From: Spirochaetia bacterium
GTDB taxonomy: Bacteria; Spirochaetota; Spirochaetia; UBA9216
Assembly (NCBI GenBank): GCA_963677925.2
Contig: CAXXYH010000003.1
Span: forward strand, 928,001 to 992,000
Direction of reading: 5' to 3'
DNA length: 64,000 bases
In this document: positions 21,018 to 25,305 of the stretch, piece after piece
Position numbering within the stretch: the stretch's first letter is position 1
Layout: the number at the start of each line of letters is the position of its first letter
Notes under the pieces: generated by a model
Seen by the model: only the letters and a program-made list of their open reading frames with translations
What the model was told of the DNA's origin: nothing
The model's database searches: none
Made by a program: the position numbers and the translations under genes

Positions 21018-21704
21018 ATGTACGTAGAATATCAGCCGCCCGCAAAGTGCGCTTCATTTCTTGAAACTATCTGGTACTCTGAGGACGCTAAACCGGGAAG
21101 CAGGATATTTCCTGATAACAATACCGACATTATCATCCCCTTAAACGACTGCTCACCTGTAAAATTTGCCGGCTACATGACAAGGTACCTGGAGCATAAT
21201 CCTCCACCTGGCCAGAAACTTCTGGGCATCCGCTTTAAGCCCGGTTATGCAGCTGCCTTTGTAAAAGATGACATGCATCTGCTGTCGGATCAGGTAGTCG
21301 AACTGAGCGGTATCCGCAGGCACGGTTTTAACATATTAAAGCAGCAATTTCAGGAAAGCGGCAAAATAGCATTCAGCCGGATTACAGAACTTCTGTATCC
21401 CTGTTTTGATGAATACCGGCTGAGACCGGAAATATCTCAGGCAATATCGCTTATCAGTTCAGCATCCGGAAGTATCCGTATTGAAGATGTTTCAAAGCTT
21501 TCAGGAATCAGCCGTAGAATGCTTGAACGGAGATTCAGGCAGGTCCTCGGCAAAACACCAAAACGTTTTGCGCAGATTGAAAGATTCAACTGCCTGATAA
21601 ATGAGAAACAATCACTTCTCAAAGCTGAATATCATGATCAGTCTCATATGATTAAGGAATTTAAAATGCTGACAGGCATGACACCTTCGCACTTTTTCTC
21701 ATAG
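21018..21704 (+). CDS. AraC family regulator (DUF6597-type N-domain)
   Basis: IFPDNNTD, LLGIRFKPG, ISRRMLERRFRQVLGKTPK, YHDQSHMIKEFK. Confidence 0.85.
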   Translation: MYVEYQPPAKCASFLETIWYSEDAKPGSRIFPDNNTDIIIPLNDCSPVKFAGYMTRYLEHNPPPGQKLLGIRFKPGYAAAFVKDDMHLLSDQVVELSGIRRHGFNILKQQFQESGKIAFSRITELLYPCFDEYRLRPEISQAISLISSASGSIRIEDVSKLSGISRRMLERRFRQVLGKTPKRFAQIERFNCLINEKQSLLKAEYHDQSHMIKEFKMLTGMTPSHFFS

Positions 21705-21765
21705 TACGCATTTTTACAATACAGAACCCAGGAAGAGGATTATTCTTAATTATCAAATAAACAGG

Positions 21766-22161
21766 ATGGAAAAAATGAATAACATGTCTGTCTGCTTTAA
21801 AACAGAAAAAGTTGATGAGTGCAGGGAGTTCTATCAGAAATACTTTAACGGCAGAATAACCTTTGACTGCGGCTGGTATGTCAGCGTGGCACTTTTTGAG
21901 TCCGATTACATTCTTAATTTCATGCAGCCTCAGGGCGGTGAAGCACTTTTCAATGGAAACGGGATTACAATCAATATAAGCGTCGAGAATGTGGATGTAC
22001 AGCATGAAAGACTCGATTCACTTGGGCTTAAATCTGTAGAACCGCTGGCCGACCATCCATGGGGGGACCGGGGCTTCTCTGTTAATGATCCAATGGGCAA
22101 CTCAATATACCTGTATACTGATATAGAGCCCACTGATGAGTTTAAGCAGTATTTTAAGTAG
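21766..22161 (+). CDS. VOC/bleomycin-resistance family protein
   Basis: REFYQKYF...FDCGWY; DHPWGDRGFSVNDPMGN. Confidence 0.85.
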   Translation: MEKMNNMSVCFKTEKVDECREFYQKYFNGRITFDCGWYVSVALFESDYILNFMQPQGGEALFNGNGITINISVENVDVQHERLDSLGLKSVEPLADHPWGDRGFSVNDPMGNSIYLYTDIEPTDEFKQYFK

Positions 22162-22167
22162 GCGTGT

Positions 22168-22518
22168 ATGGCAGATGAAAAAGTAGAACAGTTCTTATAT
22201 AACCTGCGTGATGCAGATCCGGATAAATCTATGACAGCAGAAAGAATCAGGGAACTGTACTTTAAAATTTACCCTGAGATTGCGGAACGGATAATGTACG
22301 GAGGTATTATGTTTTCACTTGAATGTGAAGATGTCGGCGGGATTTTCATACGGAAGAATCATATATCAGTTGCGTTTTCACAGGGATTCATGTTCAAGGA
22401 CCCGAATGGCTTTCTTGAGGGAGGAGGAAAGTACAGAAGACATTTAAAACTTGTAACCGTAGGCGATATTGAAAAAAAGGAGCTGGGTTCGTTTATTACC
22501 CAATTAAAAACCGTTTAA
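22168..22518 (+). CDS. DUF1801 family protein
   Basis: ERIMYGGIMF, KNHISVAFSQG, DP.G.LEG.GKYRRHLK. Confidence 0.8.
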   Translation: MADEKVEQFLYNLRDADPDKSMTAERIRELYFKIYPEIAERIMYGGIMFSLECEDVGGIFIRKNHISVAFSQGFMFKDPNGFLEGGGKYRRHLKLVTVGDIEKKELGSFITQLKTV

Positions 22519-22573
22519 TGTTGCCAAAAAACTCCATCTTTGTTATATCTGTTTACAAGATTCTCAAATTAAC

Positions 22574-22663
22574 AGGCAAAGAAAAAACACGGCCCCGCAG
22601 GTAGTCCCGGCGATCCTGATTACAGGATTCAGTATCCATCTTAATTGATGTCCGTCTTTGCCT
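22574..22663 (+). ncRNA. yjdF (azaaromatic-sensing) riboswitch
   Basis: P1 AGGCAAAGA/TCTTTGCCT; yjdF-type segments AAAAAACAC, GGTAGTCC, TCAGTA, GATGTCC; hairpins ATCCTG/CAGGAT and CATC/GATG; directly upstream of a yjdF gene. Confidence 0.85.
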
Positions 22664-22691
22664 CTGGATGAGTTATATCCGGAGGTAAACG

Positions 22692-23075
22692 ATGACACAA
22701 ACTATTTCCACAATTCTATTTAACGGTCAGTTCTGGATTGCTCTGATTGAACGTCTCTCAGAAGACGGCTCTATTCAGGTGGCCAGATATGTATTCGGAC
22801 CGGAACCGACCAATAATGATCTATTTGATTTTTATCTGAACAGATACAGCAGGCTCAAGTTTCACAGCACTGAAGAAAAAATCCGTGTAAAGAAAAGCTA
22901 TTCACATAAACAGCTTGAACGCGGCATTTCTAAATCAACCACAAGGTTTGCAGATGAGCAGAAGAAATACCTGCAGGCGAGTAAGAGGAATGCAAAAGCT
23001 GAAGCCCTTGTGCTGGCTGAGGAGAAATACAGGCAGAAGCAGGAAAAGAGGAAGCAGAAGAAACGGGGGAGATAG
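22692..23075 (+). CDS. yjdF: YjdF family protein (DUF2992)
   Basis: TILFNGQFWIALIER...VARYVFGPEPTN; basic C-terminus KQEKRKQKKRGR. Confidence 0.9.
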   Translation: MTQTISTILFNGQFWIALIERLSEDGSIQVARYVFGPEPTNNDLFDFYLNRYSRLKFHSTEEKIRVKKSYSHKQLERGISKSTTRFADEQKKYLQASKRNAKAEALVLAEEKYRQKQEKRKQKKRGR

Positions 23076-23137
23076 ATTTTACTATTTATTTTTCATAAAA
23101 ATCTTTTATATTATATACTCAACCTTAGTCTTCTTTA

Positions 23138-23171
23138 TTGACCTATTTATTAACTGTAGTTAATATATAGG
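23138..23171 (+). promoter_or_regulatory. Promoter overlapped by a 30-bp palindrome (candidate TetR operator)
   Basis: TTGACC-N17-TAATAT; CCTATtTATTAACT-gt-AGTTAATAtATAGG at 23142-23171. Confidence 0.65.
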
Positions 23172-23196
23172 CAGAATAGTTCTGTAGGAGTTTAAT

Positions 23197-23736
23197 ATGA
23201 AAAAATATTTCCGGGATATAAAATTATATCGAATAATATTAGCTTTTCTGCTTGCGATGGGATTCTATACAGTAATGACAACAATAAGTCTCCCGAAAAT
23301 AAGCAGTGAAATGAATGGGCTTAAAGCCTTCGATATGCGTCCGACGGGGTACAGTGTTCCGGAAGCTAATGAGATTCTTGAAAACTTATCGCAGCAGGGA
23401 CAGCGCTATTATACACGAGTACAGCTACCCCTTGATTTTATCTACCCGGCACTTGTTGCTGTTTACGGTCTGCTTGCCTTCAGCTATCTGAGCGCAAGAA
23501 TGAAGGTGCCTGGAATAGTATTTATGTTACCGGTTTTAGTCTGCCTTTTTGATTATCTTGAGAATATCTACATATATCTGATGCTTGGAGGCTTGAACAG
23601 CGCCCTGATGATTCATACAGCAAGCCTATTTACCATTTCAAAGAGTATTTCGACTATGCTGTTTGAAACTGTATTGATTGTATTCATAATCTATTTCATT
23701 ATTTCAAGAAAAGTATTGAGAAAAAAGCAGCAGTAA
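23197..23736 (+). CDS. Conserved membrane protein (about 4 TM)
   Basis: FDMRPTGYS...GQRYY..VQLPLDFIYP...FDYLEN pattern. Confidence 0.75.
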   Translation: MKKYFRDIKLYRIILAFLLAMGFYTVMTTISLPKISSEMNGLKAFDMRPTGYSVPEANEILENLSQQGQRYYTRVQLPLDFIYPALVAVYGLLAFSYLSARMKVPGIVFMLPVLVCLFDYLENIYIYLMLGGLNSALMIHTASLFTISKSISTMLFETVLIVFIIYFIISRKVLRKKQQ

Positions 23737-23747
23737 GGAATTATCCT

Positions 23748-24428
23748 ATGGAAAACAATGGGCAGATCTTTCCGGATTCAGGTATTTTAAAGATTACTAA
23801 ACCTGAGGTAGGAAAAAGGGAACAAAAAAAGACCGATATAAGACTGAGCTTCATGGAATCCTTCATCAGGGAGCTCGAAATAAAACCTCTTAAGGATATC
23901 AGGGTGAATGAGCTCTGCGCAAAAATCGGAATCTCCAAGGTTACCTTTTTCAAATATTTCTCAAGCCGTGATCAGGTAGTAGAGTATTTTATCTACAAAT
24001 GGTCATATGAGATGTCCTTTCAGCTGTTTCTAGGAAAACTGAAAGGAATAGATGGAATCAAAGAGGTTTTCAATTCAGTCTCAGACCACCCCGCCGGGAA
24101 GAATATCATATCGGCATTAATGACCTTCTATCTGAATAACCAGGTCTGCAACACGATGCAGCTGACACCCTACGAGCTGTATAGATTCAACCCGGAAGCG
24201 TATCTCAAAGGTTCCCCCTTCCTGGATCTGCAGGGATTATTCACAGCCCTTGTAAGAACACGGCCGAATCCTCCTGAATCAATACAGGATACAGTATTTA
24301 ATTTAATCTCCGGATTCTACGGGGTCTCCTTTGTTTCGGGTGTATATGGTTCAAAAACAGAGGAACAGGAAAGAATGAACTTAAAGGAAGCAAATAACAG
24401 GTTTATAGATGCGATTCTTTCAACATAA
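23748..24428 (+). CDS. TetR/AcrR family transcriptional regulator
   Basis: IRVNELCAKIGISKVTFFKYFSSRD HTH. Confidence 0.85.
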   Translation: MENNGQIFPDSGILKITKPEVGKREQKKTDIRLSFMESFIRELEIKPLKDIRVNELCAKIGISKVTFFKYFSSRDQVVEYFIYKWSYEMSFQLFLGKLKGIDGIKEVFNSVSDHPAGKNIISALMTFYLNNQVCNTMQLTPYELYRFNPEAYLKGSPFLDLQGLFTALVRTRPNPPESIQDTVFNLISGFYGVSFVSGVYGSKTEEQERMNLKEANNRFIDAILST

Positions 24429-24492
24429 TAATTTTACACATCAGTAAACCCATTTATGGTAAGATTCTTTAAACAAAGAGAAAGGGATAATC

Positions 24493-25305
24493 GTGTATAG
24501 GACTTTCATAAACATCCTTATCTTGTTCACTATGATATCCGCTCCTCATCTCCCGGCTCTTCAGCTCTCTGATGAACTTGAAATTTCCGAAATTGAAACA
24601 GGCGTTTTCCTGGTTACCCACAGCTTTCCATGGCCGGCCAACTCTCTTATTGTAATCATGGATGAATCGAACATCCTCTGGATAGATACTCCATATACCC
24701 CCGAAGCAACAGCTGAGGTCCTTGAATGGCTTTATTCCCGATACGGCACTGACTGTATAATTACTGAAATAAATACCGGATTTCACATCGACAACCTTGG
24801 AGGTAATGCTGAGTTGATACAGCGTGGGTTACCTGTTTACGGTTCAGCACTGACCCGTGAACTGCTTGAAACCCGAAGCAGTGCAACAATGTCAAAAATG
24901 ATCAGCTGGCTGCAGGGCCGAAAATATGAAAAATACCGTAAGATATATACCGATTTTATATTCCGGCCCCCAACCTTCACCTTTGATATAAACACAGAAC
25001 AGAACATCAGCATCGGATCAGAAAAAGTCATTATCTTTTATCCTGGGCCCTCTCATACATACGACAATCTTACTGTATATATCCCTGAACACAGACTACT
25101 TTTCGGCGGATGTATGATTTTAGCAGCAGAAACGGATAAGCCGGGGTATACTGATGATGGAAATCTTGGAGAATGGCTTAGTTCACTTCAGAATCTCAAA
25201 ATAAGATTTCCGGATGACCAGCTGCTGGTGGTTCCGGGACATGGCTCTCCGGGCAGCAGTTTGATTAATCATACAACAACTGTAATAGGTGCTTATTCAC
25301 AATAG
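24493..25305 (+). CDS. Subclass B1-like metallo-beta-lactamase, SPS-1/SPM-1 type
   Basis: Signal peptide; IDTP; NTGFHIDNLGG (Gly at BBL 116); PGPSHTYDN (H196); LFGGC (C221); VPGHG (H263); SPM-like central helical insertion. Confidence 0.85.
   Translation: MYRTFINILILFTMISAPHLPALQLSDELEISEIETGVFLVTHSFPWPANSLIVIMDESNILWIDTPYTPEATAEVLEWLYSRYGTDCIITEINTGFHIDNLGGNAELIQRGLPVYGSALTRELLETRSSATMSKMISWLQGRKYEKYRKIYTDFIFRPPTFTFDINTEQNISIGSEKVIIFYPGPSHTYDNLTVYIPEHRLLFGGCMILAAETDKPGYTDDGNLGEWLSSLQNLKIRFPDDQLLVVPGHGSPGSSLINHTTTVIGAYSQ

Follow-up and report, generated by a model that had tools for sequence, protein, structure and literature searches.

A spirochaete yjdF-class leader with a predicted sequestering hairpin coupled to P1 in place of an L4 anti-RBS sequence

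The leader at positions 22571-22694 of the window (the whole 64-kb stretch of spirochaete DNA that was analysed) belongs to the yjdF (RF01764) riboswitch class, has two mutually exclusive predicted folds, and shares its design with a clade of spirochaete relatives. It is probably a functional leader that controls translation of the DUF2992/YjdF gene through a platform coupled to P1. The ligand dependence of this leader, the ON direction of its control and the identity of its ligand are what we infer. As plain annotation the locus is ordinary, combining a known class, its usual gene and a phylum already on record. Its distinguishing feature is a variant expression platform, found clade-wide, that is coupled to P1 instead of L4 and has apparently not been described; among the papers listed by a literature search, no title or abstract opening suggested a P1-coupled yjdF platform.

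A covariance-model search (Rfam release 15) of the 64-kb window returned a single match, to RF01764 (azaaromatic/yjdF), at 22571-22671 on the + strand, where all features described here lie. The match covered model positions 1-101 of 101 with E = 7.9e-8. An earlier note on this DNA had placed the sequence in the yjdF class and named a covariance-model search as the check; the check was positive, although the score, 54.4 bits, exceeds the gathering score (45 bits) by only 9 bits. No second copy was found in the 5.04-Mb, 4-contig genome. The hallmark segments on which the note had relied are all present, namely AAAAAACAC at 22582-22590, GGUAGUCC at 22600-22607, UCAGUA at 22629-22634 and GAUGUCC at 22647-22653. 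The four-way junction of P1-P4 was recovered with J1/2 AAAAACAC, L2 GGUAGUC, J3/4 CAGUA-CC and J4/1 UGUCC, and these four junction and loop motifs all aligned with conserved positions of the RF01764 model. Pairing is complete in P1 and P3; in P2 four of the six pairs form, and P4 is shortened. The aptamer does stand directly upstream of a YjdF gene (DUF2992, 127 aa; 22692-23075 in the ORF list, start codon 22692-22694), which begins 21 nt past the RF01764 match. Its product matched PF11208 DUF2992, the B. subtilis YjdF family, at 83.7 bits (cut-off 23.8 bits, E = 1.8e-23), with residues 7-127 on profile positions 2-132 of 132.

P1 is formed by a 5′ strand, AGGCAAAGA (22574-22582), and a 3′ strand, UCUUUGCCU (22655-22663). 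All nine pairs of this helix are Watson-Crick in the pair list of the constrained fold, which confirmed the 9-bp P1 proposed earlier; the Rfam alignment covers eight of them. In the alignment, the conserved A-rich junction J1/2 (AAAAACACG, 22583-22591) falls on the model's invariant UAAAAACAC; it probably corresponds to A7-G15 of the B. subtilis structure. The Rfam alignment placed P2 and its ligand-pocket loop L2 (CAGGUAGU) at 22592-22611, with non-canonical marks at two P2 pairs, both C-C mismatches; the same-genus copy and relatives have one mismatch. The P3 stem-loop (GAUCCU/AGGAUU, with a junction-proximal G-U pair) followed at 22612-22629 and formed in free and constrained folds alike. 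J3/4 (CAGUAU) and the 5′ side of P4a (C52, C53) occupy 22630-22637, aligned to CAGUAACC of the model, and J4/1 (UGUCCG) occupies 22649-22654 in the Rfam alignment and the MFE fold. With the B. subtilis numbering transferred by us to the Rfam alignment, the bases needed for PK1 (A22589/C22590 with G22604/U22605), for PK2 (G22600/G22601 with C22652/C22653) and for the P4a pairs C52-U71 and C53-G70 (C22636/C22637 with G22650/U22651) are present. From the text on the B. subtilis structure, the GG of L2 is predicted to form its pseudoknot with C22652 and C22653. In the MFE fold, C22653 and G22654 are instead part of the OFF hairpin, paired to the start codon.

The internal stems had been described as divergent, and this was borne out in P4/L4, the carrier of the anti-RBS sequence in published models, which has lost that sequence here. 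In those models the class is a translational ON switch (PMC4793209, PMC12641257, PMC10987639). The anti-RBS lies in P4/L4, a pyrimidine-rich stem-loop of which 9-11 nt are paired to the RBS when the switch is OFF; the RBS is freed once ligand stabilises P4a (Li 2016, PMC4793209; JBC 2022, PMC9142559; Krochmal 2024, PMC10987639; Spradlin 2025, PMC12641257). At the present locus, the P4 region AUCUUAAUUGA (22638-22649) is a 3-bp stub (A54-U69, U-A and C-G, giving an AUC/GAU stem) around the AU-rich loop UUAAUU. It has no CCUCC-like run, and its duplex with the RBS was estimated at only -3.0 kcal/mol. The L4 anti-SD was reported as invariably present in 30 representatives, and only pyrimidine-pyrimidine or G-U combinations were listed for the 54-69 pair, in about 99% of 507 sequences (Spradlin et al. 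2025, PMC12641257). Here, that weak pair is instead a Watson-Crick pair, A22638-U22649.

Downstream of the aptamer, the P1 3′ strand has a second partner. When 22571-22700 was folded freely, the MFE structure (-41.2 kcal/mol; z = -3.5, a stability matched by none of 200 dinucleotide shuffles) contained not P1 but an 18-bp hairpin at 22653-22694, with arms 22653-22670/22676-22694, loop 22671-22675 and a bulged C at 22690 (-22.0 kcal/mol folded alone). The entire nine-base P1 3′ strand, which can pair with either 22574-22582 or 22683-22692, is taken up in this hairpin, and the hairpin also covers the Shine-Dalgarno GGAGG (22681-22685, six nt 5′ of the AUG), the spacer and the start codon. A hairpin at 22661-22669/22677-22685 had been proposed in the earlier note. 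It exists, made up of eight Watson-Crick pairs plus a U-G, and buries GGAGG as described, but it is merely the upper 9 bp of the 18-bp helix, and its overlap with P1, given there as 3 nt (22661-22663), was 9 nt by folding. The larger proposal, a translational ON switch built on mutual exclusion between P1 and the SD-burying hairpin, was supported by folding and by conservation in relatives.

The two folds differed in exposure of the ribosome-binding site. In the free ensemble, the probability of being unpaired was at most 0.002 for the SD and at most 0.033 for the AUG. When the aptamer helices were enforced (-32.0 kcal/mol), the AGG of the SD was unpaired with a probability of 0.84-1.0 and the AUG with at least 0.97. 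A residual 7-bp hairpin at 22664-22682 (arms 22664-22670/22676-22682, -6.5 kcal/mol alone), left in the constrained fold once P1 forms, still paired the first two G of the SD. By secondary structure alone, the OFF fold was favoured over the aptamer fold by 9.2 kcal/mol. To switch between the two, the RNA would therefore have to draw on tertiary contacts and ligand binding, or on the timing of transcription, in which the P1 3′ strand emerges about 20 nt ahead of the strand that competes for it.

The most likely mechanism, judging from these folds, is that ligand-stabilised P1 would withhold the anti-SD strand and so turn translation ON. The P1 3′ strand, extended by the nine bases that follow, would serve as the anti-SD/anti-start sequence. 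When no ligand is bound, it would form the 18-bp hairpin with the SD, spacer and AUG, giving the OFF state; with ligand, the junction and P1 would be held and the strand withheld, so that the 7-bp hairpin would remain and the AGG, spacer and AUG would be single-stranded. The upper stem (22664-22670/22676-22682) would form in both states and is probably the start point for strand displacement into P1, an invasion that ligand-stabilised P1 would resist. The Vibrio vulnificus add adenine riboswitch is likewise a P1-coupled translational ON switch, in which the P1 3′ strand is shared with the helix that hides the SD and start codon; its aptamer and ligand are unrelated, and the likeness to the spirochaete leader is functional only. 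Canonical yjdF riboswitches (B. subtilis, S. aureus, Ruminococcus gauvreauii) have the same four-way junction aptamer, the same J1/2, L2, J3/4 and J4/1 motifs, the same DUF2992/YjdF gene and the same predicted logic of translational ON by RBS release. They differ in that the anti-RBS is in P4/L4 and forms a pseudoknot with the RBS, whereas here the P1 3′ strand and downstream bases form a local hairpin, and in having a pyrimidine-pyrimidine or G-U pair where the spirochaete leader has A54-U69.

To place the leader among its relatives, loci were gathered with a 24-row YjdF protein alignment. A total of 53 RF01764 leaders was collected, 11 from the host class and 42 from 80 DUF2992 loci in named genomes; the 80 were searched in four sets of 20, which gave 15, 11, 5 and 11 loci with RF01764. 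A simple regular expression for the aptamer found 12 of the 80, against the 42 found by Rfam. Removal of five exact duplicates left 48 non-redundant leaders, which split cleanly into 19 of the variant type and 29 of the canonical type. All 19 variant leaders were from Spirochaetota, including Brucepastera, Breznakiella and Marispirochaeta, while the canonical leaders were from Actinomycetota, Bacillota, one Treponema MAG and one other genome of the host class. In a random sample of 151 Bacillota genomes, all 14 RF01764 matches had a C-rich P4/L4 and none had the variant architecture.

The two groups were opposite in where RBS complementarity resides. For the P4:RBS duplex, the median was -3.0 kcal/mol (range -11.8 to -0.6) in variant leaders and -13.1 kcal/mol (-22.0 to -3.9) in canonical leaders. 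For the first 16 nt past J4/1 against the RBS, the medians were -16.4 kcal/mol (-21.3 to -10.9) and -8.3 kcal/mol (-16.2 to -5.8), respectively. These energies are nearest-neighbour duplex estimates and take no account of competing structure. Position 54 was A in 16, U in two and G in one of the variant leaders (n = 19), and U in 24 and C in five of the canonical leaders (n = 29). Many variant leaders had a P4 of 3 bp with a tetraloop, for example GAAA in L015 and L024 and GCAA in L006 and L011. P3 length varied within the clade, with an insertion of up to 43 nt. C52, C53, G70 and U71 were kept in all 19 variant leaders; the anchors used required these bases, and no variant leader failed the anchors. 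Among canonical leaders, that of a Collinsella (L035) had a weak L4. A short P4 with a small loop and A54, as the spirochaete clade has naturally, resembles the B. subtilis mutants L4(GAAA) and U54A, which raise ligand-free expression (Spradlin, Dickerson and Batey 2025, PMC12641257). The spirochaetes, however, add a P1-linked sequestering helix, which should restore repression.

Conservation of the tail hairpin was assessed in several ways. Folding paired the region of the P1 3′ strand with the SD in all 19 non-redundant variant leaders. A covariance model of the tail hairpin was built from seven variant tails, as MAFFT alone left the hairpins out of register. With this model, 23 of 91 loci matched at E ≤ 1.1e-4, and all were variant (the 19 and four duplicates); the next match was L018, at E = 0.0049, and the best canonical loci were at E = 0.45 and 0.55. 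In the tail alignment (17 distinct rows), 87.5% of cells were paired, compared with 45-64% when partners were slid. Six of 16 pairs had changed on both sides, and none of 500 shuffles reached the covariation score; the alignment was fitted to the structure by the model and its rows are related, so these counts favour the structure and overstate independence.

A further set of loci was drawn from metagenomes using a pattern of L2, J3/4 with A54, and J4/1 only, so that the tail was not used. Of the 31 loci found, 16 carried the tail hairpin (model E ≤ 0.0055). A DUF2992-like ORF was present in 15 of these, and in the sixteenth, L129, the contig ends. All five hairpin-bearing loci tested for RF01764 matched it, at 58.6-68.9 bits. 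The other 15 matches to the pattern were chance matches, none of them with RF01764. In the metagenome set (9 distinct rows), 77.5% of cells were paired, compared with 38-56% when slid. Covariation was weak in this set: two of 16 pairs had changed on both sides, and 20 of 500 shuffles reached the score.

The same division was found in the proteins. A maximum-likelihood tree of 84 YjdF proteins (midpoint root; left out were L021, whose chosen start put it in the wrong frame, the truncated L053 and exact duplicates) separated, with 99/95 support, 24 rows that form a spirochaete clade from the remaining 60. The spirochaete clade contained 18 variant rows and six rows without an Rfam match, and the other clade contained 29 canonical rows and 31 without a riboswitch. 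Five of the six Rfam-negative spirochaete rows had sub-threshold RF01764 scores of 37-41 bits, and the sixth, L018, had the motifs with a large insertion in P2. In five of the six (all but L033), folding paired the P1 3′ strand with the SD. The Rfam cut-off thus misses part of the spirochaete clade, so that yjdF riboswitches outside Bacillota would be undercounted in surveys, and alignments that assume an L4 anti-SD fail to describe the spirochaete variant sequences.

Canonical leaders occur in two spirochaete genomes (L008, L039), and because their proteins sit in the non-spirochaete YjdF clade, the tree suggests that these were acquired separately. Another leader outside the variant group, L038 from Eggerthellaceae, has an L4 without CCUCC (P4:RBS -5.1 kcal/mol) and a 70-nt tail with inserted hairpins. 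Its P1 3′ strand CUCCUUCACGU pairs perfectly, over 11 bp, with ACGUGAAGGAG at the RBS. Like the spirochaete leaders, it lacks an L4 anti-RBS and places the P1 3′ strand on the RBS, but it belongs to the canonical YjdF clade, and has probably arrived at this arrangement independently.

Two other readings of the locus seem unlikely, to about the same degree. The first is that the aptamer is a decaying relic, and the hairpin a constitutive translational damper or mRNA stabiliser with no ligand control. The two P2 mismatches, a score near the cut-off, five relatives below the Rfam cut-off and an OFF fold much more stable on paper would all fit such decay. The low scores, however, stem largely from the lost C-rich P4 and not from the core, and every junction or loop motif tied to the pocket by the crystal-structure papers is intact (PMC12641257). 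Aptamer and hairpin also persist together in four spirochaete family groups (f1, f8, f9 and that of Breznakiella), in Brucepastera and in metagenomes; a fifth family group, f24, has the canonical type only.

The second, no better placed, is tRNA-like mimicry, by which the ligand-bound aptamer would recruit ribosomes directly and the hairpin would just set a low baseline. Ligand-dependent 70S binding by yjdF aptamers has been reported, with binding and translation dependent on stem lengths and an 8-bp acceptor-like stem performing best (JBC 2022, PMC9142559); P1 here has 9 bp. Against direct recruitment, the 18-bp hairpin that covers the SD and AUG would still have to be opened, P4 is cut down in the clade and P3 varies in length, and the later crystal structures show a T shape and favour RBS release (PMC12641257, PMC10987639).

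Much less probable is the canonical mechanism, the only one described for the class, in which P4/L4 would pair with the RBS until released by ligand-stabilised P4a and the downstream hairpin would be incidental. One variant leader, L002, does retain a CCUUCCC loop (-11.8 kcal/mol to the RBS) in addition to its tail hairpin. At this locus, however, AUCUUAAUUGA offers little to the RBS, and the P4:RBS duplex was weaker than -8 kcal/mol in 18 of the 19 variant leaders. The 3-bp P4 with a tetraloop such as GAAA or GCAA, found in many of them, matches the L4-to-GAAA replacement by which the B. subtilis riboswitch became constitutive, and the A54 of 16 of 19 leaders gives an A-U pair like that of the activating U54A mutant (PMC12641257). 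Least probable of all is a transcription-termination riboswitch: a stable hairpin does follow the aptamer, but it is followed by no U-run, its 3′ arm holds the SD and AUG, and a scan of 22400-23300 found no terminator on the + strand.

The P1-coupled reading has consequences for how the class senses its ligand, a matter in dispute with three proposals in print: a P4a-released L4-RBS pseudoknot, tRNA mimicry, and a native ligand still to be found. More tentatively than for this one leader, we suggest that the spirochaete clade represents a natural yjdF riboswitch without an L4 anti-RBS, in which ligand binding is read out via P1. By dropping the L4 anti-RBS, keeping the core including P4a, and moving the anti-SD to the P1 3′ strand, the clade would amount to a natural mutagenesis experiment, and its platform may help settle the mechanism of the yjdF sensor. 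If so, the aptamer would transmit occupancy to P1 as well as to P4a. Against this, published work places ligand-dependent changes mainly in P3b/P4a and not in P1 (PMC12641257). Indirectly in its favour, the same paper reports that in earlier SHAPE and DMS probing the sole ligand-dependent changes were around A8/A9, the bases through which P1 is capped and docked onto the L2-J4/1 pseudoknot.

Because C52, C53, G70 and U71 are kept in every variant leader despite the loss of regulatory sequence from P4/L4, P4a may have a role other than L4 signalling. The pairs C52-U71 and C53-G70 would then be conserved for ligand recognition or core folding. The earlier note described yjdF RNAs as binding azaaromatics, which is true of the class in vitro; as to the native ligand, Spradlin et al. 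(2025, PMC12641257) argue that it is still unknown and take the invariant P4a pairs as a pointer to it. Their proposal of a native ligand that contacts P4a directly would gain support if the spirochaete clade is read out via P1, and the search for that ligand could then use the clade as a simpler system, based on helix switching.

The spirochaete origin of the locus was supported by its nearest YjdF homologues and by the same-genus genome, which are labelled Spirochaetia or Spirochaetales. The closest named proteins were 'DUF2992 family protein [Spirochaetales bacterium]', and the best genome locus (80% identity, 'MAG: Spirochaetia bacterium') was identical in sequence to the locus of the same-genus genome, G001. 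In the host family, six of 11 genomes had RF01764; in the host class, 11 of 151 sampled genomes did, with matches in four families, and a DUF2992 gene was downstream in all 11 loci of the class. The note had called the host lineage unusual. The lineage is real but not new, since Spirochaetes are among the phyla already reported with yjdF motifs (Li et al. 2016, PMC4793209).

A consensus scan found no + strand promoter upstream of the aptamer. Reading of the sequence pointed to a possible weak sigma-70-like promoter at 22521-22549, with TTGCCA (22521-22526), a 17-nt spacer ending in TGT, and TATATC (22544-22549). This stretch is conserved in the same-genus genome, where overall identity is 95%, so its conservation says little. 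For the YjdF protein, a profile search found no relatives among PDB sequences (best E = 0.33), and Foldseek gave no matches at E ≤ 0.001 with an AlphaFold2 model (mean pLDDT 90.1). The modelled fold comprises three strands, a helix, a strand and a long basic helix at residues 72-125. In VIA-align comparisons the long helix alone was matched, to coiled coils, with Z of about 6.

Nine canonical leaders from Eggerthellaceae and Coriobacteriaceae, found in the yjdF/DUF2992 loci L030, L034, L036, L043, L051, L059, L065, L078 and L080 of the compared genomes, carried two stretches able to pair the ribosome binding site. In each, the RBS AAGGAGG was complementary both to L4 (UGCCUCCUUGG) and to the 3′ strand of P1 (CUCCUUC), and in the minimum-free-energy fold of the tail the P1 3′ region paired the SD, with 4/4 SD bases engaged. 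These data suggest that dual sequestration of the RBS, by L4 and by the P1 3′ strand, may be common outside Bacillus. The Eggerthellaceae leader at L038:1406–1485 had lost the CCUCC of L4, and its RBS was perfectly paired with an 11-nt stretch of the P1 3′ strand. The tail spanned by this pairing was 70 nt long, with two hairpins inserted (−38.4 kcal/mol), and the P1-coupled design of this leader looks like an independent origin.

Some leaders of spirochaete type scored below the Rfam cut-off for RF01764 (45 bits). The riboswitches of three near-identical yjdF loci, L026, L028 and L033 (about 1324–1490 in each), reached 37–41 bits. Their genomes were labelled Desulfovibrionaceae, Bacteroidaceae and Treponema; because all three YjdF proteins were placed within the spirochaete clade, two of these labels are probably MAG binning errors. 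The uncultured Spirochaetales leader at L018:1300–1503, in which the Rfam search found no RF01764 match, contained an insertion of roughly 50 nt within P2 and a tandem duplication of ~22 nt across P3 and J3/4. Despite this lack of a match, J1/2, L2, a P4 capped by GAAA and the tail hairpin were all retained. In two related Spirochaetales MAGs, the riboswitch was preceded, at a distance of about 180 nt, by a tRNA gene on the opposite strand (L015:1123–1196 and L017:1124–1197).

Of the 80 DUF2992 loci, 38 lacked an RF01764 match that reached the gathering score, among them loci in the L041–L091 range from Chlamydiota, Devosiaceae, Coxiellaceae and several Actinomycetota. These 38 included every one of the Chlamydiota-type loci (roughly 20), and the gene is therefore controlled differently there. 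GC-rich hairpins were present in the Devosiaceae leader at L055:1370–1500.

The YjdF protein of the window (22692–23075) gave a confident AlphaFold2 model (pLDDT 90.1), for which a Foldseek search found no fold match at E ≤ 0.001. Residues 1–60 formed a small beta-alpha N-terminal domain, followed by a single, very basic 54-residue helix ending in KKRKQKKRGR. Speculatively, the modelled shape hints at nucleic-acid or ribosome binding. The gene belongs to a series of small genes of stress or detoxification type (21018–25305): an AraC-family regulator (21018–21704), a glyoxalase/bleomycin-resistance fold protein (21766–22161) and a DUF1801 protein (22168–22518) precede the riboswitch and yjdF, and a 179-aa membrane protein without a Pfam match (23197–23736), a weak TetR match (23748–24428) and a metallo-beta-lactamase-fold protein (24493–25305) follow.
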